Positions 38,290 to 43,350 of a stretch of 64,000 nt of DNA are shown one piece after another (position 1 is the stretch's first letter; every line of letters begins with the position of its first letter). The position numbers and the translations under genes are program-made. The DNA comes from Candidatus Hodarchaeota archaeon. Its GTDB lineage: Archaea; Asgardarchaeota; Heimdallarchaeia; Hodarchaeales; Hodarchaeaceae. The notes beneath the pieces were generated by a model that worked only from the letters and a program-made list of their open reading frames with translations, had not been told where the DNA came from and did no database searches. The stretch is from contig JAEOTM010000057.1 in NCBI GenBank assembly GCA_016839815.1, positions 26,346-90,345 of the forward strand, in the 5' to 3' direction.

Positions 38290-38674
38290 TACAAAAAATA
38301 TCATCTTAGCGGGTGGTATAATCGCATTATGCGCTGGTTCACTATTTATCTTATTTGTTGGATCCTCAGTTCCGATCTACAGTGTGAAGGAATTAATGGA
38401 TGATCCAAATGCAGAATCCTATATTGATCGAAGAATTCAAATTGTAGGTAATGTGACTACAATAACAAATATCACCCATTTCACCATTACTGATCCTGAG
38501 ATTGTAGATCCTTCGTTAAAGATTCAAGTTGTAGCACCAGTCACTGTTGTAAGGCCACAAAGATTTGCCCTAGATAAAACAGTAGTGGTGGAAGGAAAAC
38601 TCCTCTCTATTGATGGTATCTGGTTATTCAAAGCTTCCATGATAAGTACAAAGTGCCCATCGAAGTATGAGTGA
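38282..38674 (+). CDS. ccmE: Heme chaperone CcmE (CXXXY variant)
   Basis: N-terminal TM, VVVEG, KCPSKYE. Confidence 0.92.
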   Translation: MASTKNIILAGGIIALCAGSLFILFVGSSVPIYSVKELMDDPNAESYIDRRIQIVGNVTTITNITHFTITDPEIVDPSLKIQVVAPVTVVRPQRFALDKTVVVEGKLLSIDGIWLFKASMISTKCPSKYE

Positions 38675-38775
38675 TCTTAGACATTCAATTGACTTGTCAA
38701 TTACTCTTCCCAGAAGTAAACCTTAATAAATATACTAAATCTGTATTTAATTACATACTAATGGAGCAAAAGACA

Positions 38776-38877
38776 ATGCCTCGACCAGTTAAAAGAGTAG
38801 ACACAGAATCAAAGGAAAAAGCAACTGAAGATGCTGAAAAGAATAAAGACACGGTACCTATTTCAAAACATTATTAA
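38776..38877 (+). CDS. Putative 33-aa charged peptide heading the JAB-E1-E2-E2 operon
   Basis: MPRPVKRVDTESKEKATEDAEKNKDTVPISKHY*. GGAG lies 9 nt before ATG 38776 (alternative ATG 38761) and a TATA-like ttaataaa is at about 38723. Confidence 0.55.
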   Translation: MPRPVKRVDTESKEKATEDAEKNKDTVPISKHY

Positions 38878-38924
38878 CTAGATCTCTTCTTATCTAATTC
38901 TGATCCTTAAAGGGGATTTACTTA

Positions 38925-39872
38925 TTGCATTCATATCAAGGGGAATCCATATTTATCCAAATTGATCAGGATGTGTACGATGAGATGGTTAAGGAGGGTT
39001 TACAGTGGCCACGTATCGAAACAGGAGGGATGCTATTCGGAAATCTCATTGAAGATGAGAATCATTTAGTAATTGAAATTCTTAAAACACAGATACCTTC
39101 CGATGAAAACTGTATCCGTGAATCAGCATATTTTGAGATTAATCCCGATTACGCCAAGCAAATCTTATCTCAGGAAGAACTTGACTATTTAGGGAATTGG
39201 CATAAGCATCCTGGATATGGTGGACCGTCTCATGGTGATCACCAACAGATTCATGATTTTTTCCTTAATAATCCCCACTTAGATGTTATATTGACTTTTA
39301 TCCTAAATTTCCATTCCGAACGAGAGTATGAACCGATAATTGAAGTTTACTTTAGAGAGAAGCAGAATATGGTTGAAACTTCCTTCATCACAAGATCAGT
39401 ACCACCAAGTAATCTTAGTTTTACTCCTACTACTATACATGAACGAACACCAGTAATCAGAGAAAAAGGAGTATCAACGGATATTCTATCGAGAGTAAAA
39501 CACGAATTAGTGAACATTTTTGACCATCTTTCGGCAATTCACGATATACAGGATTATCCTGGTCAAGCTCCAGATGAGAAAGTCTTATCATTCCCCTATC
39601 AATGCCAAATTAGTCATTTAGATCAATTAATATACGTAAATCTTATGATATCAATTTCTTTTCCCCCTGAATTCCCTAAGGGTAAGCTTTACTTTGATAT
39701 TTCATCAGAGGACATGTCAAAAAATTTTACTTTTAAAACTCATACCGCGGAAACCTTAAATGATATGGAACTTGTACATCCATTTCTATCTCTTTTAAAA
39801 TCTGATATTGAAGATGATTTACCTGTACTCCTTGAAAAGCCCTTATGGAGAGTAATACAAAATAATTTGTGA
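38925..39872 (+). CDS. JAB/MPN+ metallo-isopeptidase fused to a C-terminal UBC/RWD-like domain
   Basis: IETGGMLFG...YLGNWHKHPGYGGPSHGD (intact E-HxH-S-D); C-terminal ISISFPPEFPKG. Confidence 0.88.
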   Translation: MHSYQGESIFIQIDQDVYDEMVKEGLQWPRIETGGMLFGNLIEDENHLVIEILKTQIPSDENCIRESAYFEINPDYAKQILSQEELDYLGNWHKHPGYGGPSHGDHQQIHDFFLNNPHLDVILTFILNFHSEREYEPIIEVYFREKQNMVETSFITRSVPPSNLSFTPTTIHERTPVIREKGVSTDILSRVKHELVNIFDHLSAIHDIQDYPGQAPDEKVLSFPYQCQISHLDQLIYVNLMISISFPPEFPKGKLYFDISSEDMSKNFTFKTHTAETLNDMELVHPFLSLLKSDIEDDLPVLLEKPLWRVIQNNL

Positions 39873-41113
39873 TAAAAATGAAATTTTTACTCTATCCAGA
39901 ACTTGAAGCACGATTAAAAAACATACCTTTCCAAGAGGATCCTTTACCCCTATTTGGACGGTCTTTTGATGATTTTACTGTATTTCATTTGGTTGATTTG
40001 ACATCTACCAGCAATGATATTTATCAAATCGGATATCTCTCGACAGAAACAACAAATTCCAATTTTTCCATGACTTTTCCCTTTATTAATCTGACTCTTG
40101 ATAATAAAACATTTAAGATAACAAAGATCACCATTCATAGAAATAAAGACAATATTGAATCATTAGATGAGTTTGAAATAGAATCCATTGATCTTGAACG
40201 ACTATTTGTACGTATTGATCAAGAAGAAACCCCTTTAAATATATTAAGAACAAAAACGGTCGCCATTATTGGAATGGGATCAGGTGGTTCCCTTTTGGCT
40301 TTATATCTGGCAAAAACAGGTATTAAGAGCTTTATCCTCATCGATGATGACCAACTTGAAGTCCATAATATTATACGTCACATTTCTGATCTTTCCCAGC
40401 TCGGTAGGTACAAAACTAAAGCAGTTAAAGACTTTATTCGAAAGAGATTACCAGAAACTCAAATAAAAACTATAGAACGAAAATTTGTATTGCACACAAG
40501 AGCTGATGCAGACTTTTTCCTTGAGATCTTCAAAGATATTGATCTACTAATTGCTGTTTCCGGAGAACACGACGTTAACTTTGCAATCAACGATTTTGTA
40601 CATATAAATGACTTGAAATTTCCTGTTATCTATGCAGGAACATTTGATGGAGTAAAAGGGGGATTAATGTTCAAAGTGGATAAGCGTGAAGATGATCTCT
40701 GTTATCATTGCGTTTATGCTGATACTTTAACTTATCCTTTGTCAGACGGTGACCCTCAAGGAAGTATTCCGACAACAAGTGAGCTAGAGAAGAAGATTGT
40801 ATATGATCGGACCATGCAAGAACAACTTGCTCAACCAGGATTAGGATTAGATATTGATAACATAACTCTCCTCCTCTCAAAATTTTGCTTGGATACTCTG
40901 CTTAAGGGTCATGAACATGGATTATATCACTTCCCTTTCAATTTTTATCTCTGGTATAACAGAACTATCTTAAAACCTGATTCAGAGGAGATTAAGTTTG
41001 AAGGACTCGAATTGTGTTACTATGAGGATTTAGAGAAGAGTAAGGAATGTCCCTTCCACGGAAATCAGGTTGGATCAGATTCAGACACTGATAAAACTGA
41101 ATTTAATCGTTAA
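39869..41113 (+). CDS. ThiF/MoeB/E1-family adenylyltransferase
   Basis: IIGMGSGGS, LIDDDQLEVHNIIRH, GRYKT, Zn site CYHC...CPFH, QPGLGLDI. Confidence 0.92.
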   Translation: MIKMKFLLYPELEARLKNIPFQEDPLPLFGRSFDDFTVFHLVDLTSTSNDIYQIGYLSTETTNSNFSMTFPFINLTLDNKTFKITKITIHRNKDNIESLDEFEIESIDLERLFVRIDQEETPLNILRTKTVAIIGMGSGGSLLALYLAKTGIKSFILIDDDQLEVHNIIRHISDLSQLGRYKTKAVKDFIRKRLPETQIKTIERKFVLHTRADADFFLEIFKDIDLLIAVSGEHDVNFAINDFVHINDLKFPVIYAGTFDGVKGGLMFKVDKREDDLCYHCVYADTLTYPLSDGDPQGSIPTTSELEKKIVYDRTMQEQLAQPGLGLDIDNITLLLSKFCLDTLLKGHEHGLYHFPFNFYLWYNRTILKPDSEEIKFEGLELCYYEDLEKSKECPFHGNQVGSDSDTDKTEFNR

Positions 41114-41141
41114 AATAAAAATTAATAGAAGTTGAGAGAGC

Positions 41142-41576
41142 TTGTCACTTAGAGGTAACTTAGTCGATAGGGAATTGGAAAGTTTACGGAAAATTTTTCC
41201 TGATATACATAAGAAAGACTTTCTTCAGCTGAAAAACAAGAATAAATGTGTACAAGTCAGCTTTATTACTACAGGCAAATATGCCTGTGGACATTTCGAT
41301 GTACTTATCGAATTTCCTTATAATTATCCAGTAGGATCACCCCTTGTGTGGGTTCAAAGACCCCGAATCCCAAAAAATACGCCACACGTATATGGATGGG
41401 ATAAAGATGGACACGCAAGTATTTGTTATCTTAGACCCAAGAAAGATTGGCGTATGCACTATAGTTCATATGAAACAGCTCTCATGGTAGAAGCTTGGTT
41501 GAAGACATATTGCAGATGGACAAAAACAAGCATTTGGGATTGGCCAGAAGCAGGTGTACTTGATCACATATTTTAA
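41142..41576 (+). CDS. E2/UBC-fold conjugating enzyme (paralog 1)
   Basis: LIEFPYNYPVGSPLVW, PHVY...SICYLRPKKDW with catalytic Cys. Confidence 0.85.
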   Translation: MSLRGNLVDRELESLRKIFPDIHKKDFLQLKNKNKCVQVSFITTGKYACGHFDVLIEFPYNYPVGSPLVWVQRPRIPKNTPHVYGWDKDGHASICYLRPKKDWRMHYSSYETALMVEAWLKTYCRWTKTSIWDWPEAGVLDHIF

Positions 41577-41607
41577 TAAATGAAATACTGAATAGGGAAA
41601 TACCAAA

Positions 41608-42012
41608 TTGAGACGGACAGTTGAGAATGAATTACATGAACTAAAGGGAGTATTTCCAGGATTAACTCGTAAAGATTTCTACTATCTTGACAATGGAAAT
41701 ATTGCTGTACAGGTAAAGTATTCCACCACTGGACAGTATGCTCATGGTACATTTACTGTATTGATTGAGTTCCCCCATAATTATCCGAATGCTCCACCCC
41801 GAGCTTGGATTATGGAACCAACCATTTCCAGTCGTACACATCATATCTATGGACGAGATAAGTACGGACATACTGAAATATGTTACCTTCGACCTCAAAA
41901 AGATTGGCACTTCACCTTTACATCTTATGATGCAGCAATTATGATTCAAACTTGGATTTGGGCATACTGTCGATGGAGAAAGGTTGGTATTTGGGATTGG
42001 AAAGAAGCTTAA
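41608..42012 (+). CDS. E2/UBC-fold conjugating enzyme (paralog 2)
   Basis: LIEFPHNYPNAPPRAW, HHIY...EICYLRPQKDW with catalytic Cys. Confidence 0.85.
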   Translation: MRRTVENELHELKGVFPGLTRKDFYYLDNGNIAVQVKYSTTGQYAHGTFTVLIEFPHNYPNAPPRAWIMEPTISSRTHHIYGRDKYGHTEICYLRPQKDWHFTFTSYDAAIMIQTWIWAYCRWRKVGIWDWKEA

Positions 42013-42047
42013 CTGATAATTTTTTCCTCATTAAAGCCTAGCTCCTC

Positions 42048-42067
42048 TTTCTGATAATTATCAGAAA
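42048..42067. promoter_or_regulatory. Perfect 20-bp palindrome between the E2 operon and moxR
   Basis: tttctgataa|ttatcagaaa. Confidence 0.5.
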
Positions 42068-42390
42068 AATTTAATTTAATTTCGAAAATTAGTAAATATT
42101 TTCACATAAAGACTTCACATAACTTCGCCTGCACTATATAAGTCGAAACACTTCTCGTTTCTCAAAAGAAATGTGAACAGACAACTTAAGATACTAGAAA
42201 CACCAAATTATTGACAATAATTCCCATTATTAGGTAGAAAATCATTAACTTTTCTTTTAATGATTAATTATTAAATTTACATCCAAAGATTTATTCTTTT
42301 GAATTAATTTCAAGCAATTCCTAAATGCATCTGCCGAAATCCTGAAAATCCTCTCTCAGTAAAAGCCTAATATAGGAGGATCCTCCCTCA

Positions 42391-43350
42391 ATGAATATCC
42401 AAGAAGCCGTTGACACTTGTAACACCATTTTAAGTGAAGTAAACAAACATATAATTGGGAAGGACTCAGTTTTAAAACATGTTATGCTTTGTTTACTCGC
42501 AGATGGGCATATATTATTTGAAGATTATCCAGGACTAGCTAAAACCATGATCTGTAGATCTTTTGCCTCTGTTCTTGGATGTGACTTTAATCGGATTCAA
42601 TTTACGCCGGATCTTTTACCCCAAGATCTTACTGGGTCTGAAATTTATAATCAAAAGTCAAATGACTTTGAATTCAAACCTGGTCCCTTATTTGCTGATA
42701 TTATTTTAGCCGATGAAATCAACAGAGCAACTCCAAAGACTCAGAGTGCTTTATTGGAAGCTATGGGTGAATACCAAGTGTCTATTGGAGGTAATACACA
42801 TCAGCTTATTAGTGATGAGAAACCTTTCGTAGTAGTTGCAACACAGAATCCACTTGAATTAGAAGGAACATTTGCTCTTCCTGAGGCTCAAGTCGATCGA
42901 TTTCTAGCTAAGATTCGAATTGGTTATCCATCAAAACTTGATGAAGCGAAAATTCTTACTAATCGCATTGATCGGAAATCTAAATCCTTTACTCTCCCCC
43001 AAATTATTACAAAAGGTGTGTTTCGTGAAATGCAAAAGGTTGTAGAAACTGTCTCTGTTTCTGATGAGATCAAATCTTATATCGTAGATATCGTTGATTA
43101 TACTCGAAAAGCTCCTCAGGTAAGAGTAGGAGCTTCTCCACGCGGATCGTTAGATCTTATGTCATTAGCTAGAGCTAATGCAGTACTAAAGGGGAGAGAT
43201 TACGTTATTCCTCACGATGTCAAAGAATTAGCCACTCTAACCTTAGCTCATCGGATTATCCTAGACATCGGATCATTTATTGCAGGTGGTTCTTCAGAAG
43301 AAATTGTTTCAAGGATTTTAACAAAAGTTGACGCACCCAGGAAAGAGTAG
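42391..43350 (+). CDS. moxR: MoxR-family AAA+ ATPase
   Basis: EDYPGLAKT, RIQFTPDLLP, DEINRA, ATQNPLE, GASPRGS. Confidence 0.95.
   Translation: MNIQEAVDTCNTILSEVNKHIIGKDSVLKHVMLCLLADGHILFEDYPGLAKTMICRSFASVLGCDFNRIQFTPDLLPQDLTGSEIYNQKSNDFEFKPGPLFADIILADEINRATPKTQSALLEAMGEYQVSIGGNTHQLISDEKPFVVVATQNPLELEGTFALPEAQVDRFLAKIRIGYPSKLDEAKILTNRIDRKSKSFTLPQIITKGVFREMQKVVETVSVSDEIKSYIVDIVDYTRKAPQVRVGASPRGSLDLMSLARANAVLKGRDYVIPHDVKELATLTLAHRIILDIGSFIAGGSSEEIVSRILTKVDAPRKE

Follow-up and report, generated by a model that had tools for sequence, protein, structure and literature searches.

In the textbook ubiquitin-type cascade, a cargo is activated as an adenylate, handed to a cysteine of the E1 enzyme and passed from there to a cysteine of an E2. 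How could such a cascade run if the E1 offers no cysteine to receive the cargo? This question is raised by a small gene cassette in a 64,000-nucleotide stretch of DNA (the window) from the Asgard archaeon Candidatus Hodarchaeota archaeon (assembly GCA_016839815.1, contig JAEOTM010000057.1, positions 26,346 to 90,345). The cassette consists of genes, all on the + strand, for a 33-residue peptide and, packed tightly together, a JAB peptidase, an E1-like adenylating enzyme of 414 amino acids (39869–41113; coordinates here and below are positions in the window) and two E2-like proteins. We report that the crossover loop of this E1 contains no cysteine and carries a single tyrosine, Tyr312, that is kept across the whole family, and that both E2 partners retain an invariant cysteine. 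The best reading of these data, which we judge to be slightly short of evenly balanced, is that Tyr312 takes the cargo as a transient ester and relays it to an E2 cysteine.

The E1's crossover loop contains no cysteine

Translation of the E1 gene places 40 residues, V282 to A321 (40712–40831), between the first zinc-binding pair, C278-Y-H-C281 (40700–40711), and the motif Q322-PGLGLDID (40832–40858), which marks the start of the helix closing the loop and in which P323, G324, L325 and D328 show little or no variation. None of these 40 residues is a cysteine, just as the first-pass annotation of this DNA had stated for the range 40700–40843, corresponding to C278 to L325 of the protein. The E1 has five cysteines in all (positions 278, 281, 340, 383 and 394), and at a content of five in 414 residues a cysteine-free stretch of 40 is expected about six times in ten. 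Taken alone, this sequence does not exceed the chance expectation, and the weight of the observation comes from comparison. We used 69 close homologues, nearly all from Heimdall- or Hodarchaeales-type Asgard archaea, obtained by searching 5.8 billion clustered proteins, together with a HMMER scan of 1.84 billion cluster representatives that gave 5,199 relatives at E < 0.001. The close homologues and the best 150 of the 5,199 representatives provided 201 sequences in which the loop could be aligned. A loop cysteine is absent from all of the close homologues that have both flanking motifs (67/67), and from 195 of the 201 alignable relatives. The hallmark of conjugating E1s (UBA1-7, Atg7, UBA5, Cap2, BilD), a cysteine either on the crossover loop or in an inserted domain, is thus missing on both counts, the loop being 40 residues long and holding no inserted cysteine domain.

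Another cysteine of the protein might still reach the adenylate and form an ordinary thioester. The two candidates outside the zinc site are C340 (KFC), located in a predicted helix (residues 327–344) after the loop, and C383 (ELC). The former is indeed a cysteine in 44 of the 69 close homologues, but it is replaced by Ser, Ile or Ala in 23 of them and mostly by Ala further out, and the latter is a cysteine in only 14 of the 69. The zinc ligands C278, C281 and C394 are the only conserved cysteines of the E1. Both candidates were consequently rejected for their poor conservation, and we regard a hidden catalytic cysteine as highly improbable.

The loss of the cysteine appears to be specific to this system rather than to the organism, since three other full-length ThiF/E1 genes of the same genome (on contigs C135, C7 and C122, our loci L007, L008 and L009) keep a cysteine after their CxxC motif. 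In L008 and L009, this motif is followed by ...ACTLVG...HC... and the proteins have a long C-terminal extension, so that they look like eukaryote-type E1s. The first-pass annotation had started from the premise that MoeB/Uba4-type and canonical E1s carry a thioester cysteine in this loop, which was too simple: E. coli MoeB reportedly does not need its loop cysteine.

The adenylation fold and the zinc site are retained

Judged from its sequence and its predicted structure, the E1 is otherwise intact, with the ATP site and the adenylation fold of the E1/ThiF/MoeB superfamily. It is composed of a beta-rich N-terminal domain (residues 1 to about 115) and a ThiF-fold domain (about 108–407), with a Pfam ThiF match at 2.4e-24 over residues 124–286. 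An AlphaFold2 (AF2) model has an overall predicted local distance difference test (pLDDT) score of 80.5. Its N-terminal domain (1–115) is modelled confidently, and the structure matches span mainly residues 108–407, over which UBA3, UBA5, MoeB and ThiF align with Z 23–24 (VIA-align). The glycine pattern of the ATP-binding loop, G135-M-G-S-G-G140 (40271–40288; G135-x-G-x-x-G140 in the family), is shared by the close family and at least 140 of 145 distant sequences. The same holds for the further adenylation residues D159, R170 and K182, which are invariant in the close family and likewise kept in at least 140 of the 145. Two other positions of the site are more variable: about half of the distant sequences have R115, and E233 is E or D in 68 of the 69 close homologues and, at this aligned column, mostly N, S or T in distant ones.

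The sequence also predicts the structural zinc site of the superfamily, formed by C278/C281 and by the second pair C394-P-F-H397 (41048–41059). Cysteines occupy both positions of the first pair in 208 of 214 aligned sequences, and all close homologues that extend as far as C394 keep it. At position 397, 61 of the 69 close homologues have a histidine and distant members a cysteine (giving CxxC), from which it follows that His397 replaces the fourth cysteine ligand in the close family. The proposal of CPFH as the second zinc pair, already made from the letters alone, is thereby borne out.

The nearest solved protein by sequence is Cap2 of the CBASS system (cyclic oligonucleotide-based antiphage signalling; 1.6e-14 in a search of PDB sequences), which Foldseek also ranks first. 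MccB (about 1e-12) and PaaA (about 6e-11) also rank among the better sequence matches, and MccB aligns with the E1 model at Z 22–23. In these enzymes an E1 fold is joined to an additional N-terminal domain, a clamp that binds the precursor peptide; they act on a short ribosomal peptide and need no acyl-carrying cysteine. The protein studied here could be a comparable peptide-modifying adenylase, of the kind that makes ribosomally synthesized and post-translationally modified peptides; no acyl carrier would then be needed, and the E2-fold proteins would be scaffolds or peptidase/transpeptidase-like enzymes. Such a role would suit a substrate that is likely to be a short unfolded peptide instead of a beta-grasp protein, as well as the kinship of one of the E2-like proteins (E2-A, see below) with the stand-alone CBASS E2 8yjy, its best structural match, which is reported to work without an E1. 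We nevertheless find it improbable, for the JAB, E1 and E2 proteins of the cassette all find their best matches among Cap2/Cap3-type conjugation parts, the His/Cys pair of the E2s is invariant, and natural JAB-UEV-E1 and E2-E1 fusions indicate that the parts are tied into one machine. MccB and PaaA, for their part, work without E2 or JAB partners and yield modified peptides, not conjugates.

A tyrosine is conserved at the distal end of the loop

Tyr312 (codon TAT, 40802–40804; motif I-V-Y-D-R, I-x-Y-D-R in the family) lies about 10 residues before the PGL motif and is the candidate catalytic residue of the E1. It is a tyrosine in all 68 aligned close homologues, and a distal loop tyrosine is present in all 201 alignable relatives, in 178 of them 8–12 residues before (E/Q)PGL. 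Tyr312 is also the sole loop residue kept across the whole family, which answers the earlier call to check the conservation of a loop tyrosine. Tyr283 is merely hydrophobic in distant relatives, Tyr289 is not conserved, and neither are the threonines and serines of the loop outside the close family. A serine or threonine nucleophile was rejected, P301-T-T being kept in the close family only and absent from distant cassettes such as that of the metagenomic contig L002. Of the two possibilities raised by the first-pass annotation, direct attack by an E2 cysteine or a loop Tyr, Ser or Thr acting as the nucleophile, both are still the readings left by the evidence, although the hydroxyl has been narrowed to that of Tyr312 and the other candidates have fallen on conservation. 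Where a relative does carry a loop cysteine, which is rare, this cysteine is located two residues after the distal tyrosine (NYGCGEPT, KYNCGMPT), which suggests that the tyrosine region is probably the catalytic tip, reaching the active site.

A similar loop has been described in bacteria, where the Bub work of 2024 revealed one family that operates without any cysteine (Ye, Gong, Chambers and Corbett, bioRxiv 10.1101/2024.11.21.623953). The Bub E1s lack a loop cysteine and possess an invariant loop tyrosine (Y370 in BubCD, Y342 in BubBD). The substitutions Y370F and Y342F abolish conjugation, a tyrosine oxyester was proposed by the authors, and the Bub E2 uses a serine (bioRxiv 10.1101/2024.11.21.623953). 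Tyr312 stands 10 residues before the end of its loop and Y370 seven residues before the end of the BubCD loop (347–377). By analogy of position, we infer that the two tyrosines may be equivalent.

Both E2 partners keep their cysteine

The two genes downstream of the E1 encode E2-A (144 amino acids, 41142–41576) and E2-B (134 amino acids, 41608–42012), which are paralogous E2-like proteins. In an alignment of both proteins with their orthologues and with the E2 domains of two bacterial E2-E1 fusions, H82, C95, P99 and W103 (E2-A numbering) are invariant. The C95 codon is located at 41424–41426, and the equivalent His/Cys pair of E2-B is H79/C92 (C92 codon 41881–41883). Pfam E2-CBASS matches were obtained for the orthologues of both proteins in a complete Heimdall-type genome (L001). 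The AF2 model of E2-A (pLDDT 84) has a small UBC-like fold without the last two helices, as in the Serratia stand-alone CBASS E2 8yjy_B, which is its best match (129 residues aligned at Z 9.8); next comes the Cap2 E2 domain (Z 9.6), followed by Tsg101 UEV, UFC1 and BubB.

The pairing of a cysteine-bearing E2 with a cysteine-less Tyr loop is common outside Asgard archaea as well. At least seven bacterial representatives are natural E2-E1 fusions, in which a single Cys-E2 domain is joined to an E1 with a Cys-less, Tyr-bearing loop, and the divergent cassette L002 has a single E2 and again a Cys-less loop. The suggestion that one of the two E2s of the window might stand in for the missing E1 cysteine has lost ground for this reason, because the loop lacks its cysteine even where there is only one E2.

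The two E2s differ at their C-termini. E2-A ends in EAGVLDHIF (tail at 41550–41576), and its orthologues end in EAG-x-x-D-H-x-(F/L), which resembles the K-H-Y end of the 33-residue peptide; the tail could mimic the cargo, serving in autoinhibition or self-loading. E2-B ends in WDWKEA and its orthologues in WDW-x-EA. In a bacterial E1-E2 fusion with a C-terminal E2 (P0101, residues 434–544), the position of the catalytic cysteine reads G-S-I-P, and this domain is possibly, going by its sequence, a Ser-type E2 as in Bub.

Proposed mechanisms: tyrosine relay or direct attack by the E2

We infer the following chemical steps. The E1 would bind ATP and adenylate its cargo at the C-terminus; this cargo is most likely the HY-ended 33-residue peptide after trimming by the JAB protein. 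The usual E1 thioester could not form, because there is no conserved cysteine outside the zinc site. Tyr312, carried on the mobile crossover loop, would substitute for the catalytic cysteine, attacking the acyl-adenylate through its hydroxyl and forming a transient tyrosyl ester. The loop would then swing to the bound E2, where C95 of E2-A or C92 of E2-B would take the cargo as a thioester, and the E2 would finally pass it to a target. Aryl esters are activated enough for attack by a thiolate, which speaks for such a relay.

The main rival to this scheme involves no covalent E1 intermediate: the E2 cysteine would dock over the adenylation site and attack the acyl-adenylate directly, and Tyr312 would shape the channel, hold the C-terminal His-Tyr of the cargo or belong to the surface on which the E2 docks. 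In favour of this scheme, the C548A mutant of Cap2, which has lost the crossover-loop cysteine, still conjugates in vitro because the E2 cysteine C109 can act instead (Ledvina et al., bioRxiv 10.1101/2022.03.31.486616). The natural E2-E1 fusions described above, which pair a Cys E2 with a Cys-less E1 loop, support the same scheme. Conversely, the effect of the conservative Y-to-F substitution on the Bub reaction implicates the hydroxyl itself, and a tyrosine present in 201 of 201 relatives amid variable surroundings would be unusual for a purely structural loop residue. Altogether, direct attack appears to us a serious contender, although it probably does not apply.

Several observations nonetheless weigh against a relay by Tyr312. 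Loop residues 286–325 have a pLDDT < 50 in the AF2 model, as is usual for mobile crossover loops, so that the model does not fix where Tyr312 stands with respect to the adenylate. The occurrence of a tyrosine together with a nearby cysteine in some relatives means that the tyrosine could be non-nucleophilic, with a role in gating or positioning, as direct attack would have it. In searches of PDB sequences with two relatives (P0205 and P0122), the alignments end before the loop and BubCD is not among the matches; the equivalence of Tyr312 with Y370 or with C548 of Cap2 is accordingly one of relative loop position only. The Cap2 C548A result also implies that a relay residue is not chemically required when the E2 has a cysteine. 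Finally, the tyrosyl ester of Bub was deduced from mutants and models, and was not trapped (bioRxiv 10.1101/2024.11.21.623953).

A conserved short peptide is the likely cargo

The first gene of the cassette (38776–38877) encodes a 33-residue peptide (MPRP...VPISKHY). Upstream of the JAB gene, this open reading frame (ORF) is conserved nearly letter for letter in 12 related genomes and in three metagenomic contigs (L002–L004). It is almost unchanged where the E1s are only 55–75% identical, and thus far more conserved than the neighbouring enzymes. The gene is present in a single copy in the genome. We found no beta-grasp or Gly-Gly ORF in 38600–42450 on either strand, no DUF6527 (PF20137) in the cassette and no cyclase in the cassette at 15 loci, and the genome, which is 89.5% complete, gave no PF20137 and no SMODS/CD-NTase match. 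As the cassette offers no beta-grasp gene, CD-NTase or DUF6527, the 33-residue peptide is most likely the cargo, that is, the tag. A C-terminal tyrosine would be an unusual end for an E1 substrate. Some orthologues extend one or two residues past the HY (HYS, HYRN, HYRQ), which hints at C-terminal trimming, probably by the JAB protein. A complex prediction for E1, E2-A, the peptide and ATP scored 0.33, which is not above the controls (one of which reached 0.50) and speaks neither for nor against binding.

The putative trimming enzyme is a JAB/JAMM peptidase of 315 amino acids (38925–39872; Pfam Prok-JAB 5.4e-07), whose gene is overlapped by that of the E1 by 4 nucleotides. Its JAB motif comprises E32 and H93-x-H95...S102-x-x-D105 (39195–39239). 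The C-terminal domain (39470–39872) has a UBC/RWD-like FPPEFP motif and no cysteine loop, and is therefore predicted from its sequence to be UEV-like. In a metagenomic relative (P0073, contig L004, 132–2162), a single protein of 676 amino acids comprises a JAB domain, a UEV-like domain and the E1 together with its N-terminal domain.

The order peptide ending in HY, JAB with UEV-like domain, E1, E2 and E2 is conserved in cassettes of the Hodarchaeales type. In the window, the cassette is flanked by cytochrome c maturation genes (CcmF/CcmE-like) on one side and by a gene for a MoxR-type AAA ATPase on the other, and between the CcmE-like gene and the ATPase gene the peptide is the only extra conserved ORF; no other was found there beyond the cassette genes. 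The same gene order occurs with other neighbours in the complete Heimdall-type genome L001, in the metagenomic contigs L002–L004 and in 12 genomes from the genus of the window. Among 301 sampled genomes of the phylum, the cassette is present, always as a single copy, in 13 of the 22 that belong to this genus as against none of the 279 others. Accessory modules typically show such a patchy distribution. Near the cassettes of L002 (8809–11173) or L003 (6755–7622), we noticed a TIR-NACHT-pentapeptide gene or a HEPN/nucleotidyltransferase pair, and these neighbours suggest a defence-island setting. A bacterial operon (L005, 1045–5942) encodes an RWD-like protein of 436 amino acids, a Cys E2-CBASS protein, a Cys-less E1 with a Tyr loop (P0084), a protein of 318 amino acids of no known kind and a guanylate-cyclase-fold protein. 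As a whole, the operon resembles a split Cap2-type system acting on a cyclase.

Relationship to known conjugation systems

The E1 is Bub-like in its loop and Cap2/Cap3-like in its parts, and is a member of neither group. With Bub (formerly 6E; PDB 9ea4, 9eae), it shares the Cys-less crossover loop with one invariant tyrosine near the distal end, the MoeB/ThiF/UBA5 kind of E1 without an inserted cysteine domain, and the association of a JAB peptidase with the E1, of which the JAB-E1 fusion mentioned above is the counterpart in the present family. However, the Bub E2s use a serine (plus His/Asp or Lys/His), whereas both E2s of the window keep their invariant cysteine. Bub also has a beta-grasp ubiquitin-like protein (BubA) and the DUF6527 protease BubE, in place of which we find a 33-residue peptide and no DUF6527. 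The sequence similarity to BubCD is weak (2.8e-4 in the PDB search), and the present host is an archaeon.

It is in Type II CBASS (Cap2/Cap3; PDB 7to3) that the E1 finds its best match, by sequence as well as by Foldseek; the E2s belong to the E2-CBASS Pfam family and match the Cap2 E2 domain, and the JAB resembles Cap3-type models. PADLOC models of this type match the cassette for the E1-E2 (3.9e-29), the JAB (8.8e-13) and the E2 (1.1e-07), and in both systems the cargo does not have a ubiquitin fold. In contrast to the present E1, Cap2 unites E2, linker and E1 in one fused polypeptide and carries a loop cysteine (C548 in E. cloacae, C513 in E. coli); thioesters have been mapped on its C493 and C513 (Jenson et al., PMC10097602). 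Moreover, the cargo of Cap2 is the C-terminal glycine of a CD-NTase, encoded along with an effector gene, whereas the likely cargo here ends in His-Tyr. The parts of the cassette also match those of the 6A-MBL model (NCBIfam NF058523, a cap2_3 fusion), in which E2, E1 and JAB form one protein instead of being encoded by separate genes. With 61 bits for the E1, 39 for the JAB and 23 for E2-A against a cut-off of 320 bits, this kinship can only be distant.

Other relatives resemble single components. Serratia CdnG-E2 (short Type II CBASS, PDB 8yjy/8hsb) is the top structural match of E2-A, but belongs to a system without an E1, whereas an intact E1 is always adjacent here. In the non-canonical eukaryotic pairs Atg7-Atg3/Atg10 and UBA5-UFC1, the E1 is likewise of the homodimer type and bears its catalytic residue directly on the crossover loop instead of in an inserted domain (adenylation domain Z 22–24, with UFC1 among the E2 matches); this residue is, however, a cysteine (C507 in Atg7, C250 in UBA5), and the cargo is a beta-grasp protein ending in Gly. 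Beyond the Bub preprint and the Cap2 papers, we found no paper on a Tyr-loop E1 with a Cys E2, on other tyrosine crossover loops, on the mechanism of 6A-MBL or on this Asgard cassette, in a search that fell short of most subscription journals and is no proof of novelty.

Implications for E1 evolution

The locus represents an intermediate design, with a Cys-less, Tyr-bearing E1 loop on the one hand and normal Cys E2s on the other. The same design recurs in at least 190 cluster representatives, as split or as fused proteins, both among bacteria and in this Asgard lineage. In its broadest form, the proposal is that Tyr-relay (or relay-free) E1s, far from being a peculiarity of Bub, are the norm for a large Cap2-like clade of prokaryotes with Cys E2s, and that one Asgard lineage activates an unfolded peptide of 33 residues via a C-terminal tyrosine, which would amount to ubiquitin-style tagging without ubiquitin, Gly-Gly or an E1 thioester. 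Taken as a whole, we consider this rather unlikely.

The host is a member of the archaeal group closest to eukaryotes, and its other, cysteine-bearing E1s allow both kinds to be compared within a single organism. With four proteins and a peptide, the system is small, and its reconstitution should be easy. If Tyr312 does act as a relay, oxyester chemistry in E1s would be widespread and compatible with thioester-forming E2s. If it does not, E1 thioesters would be dispensable in a whole clade. The latter outcome would bear on how the three-step cascade evolved.

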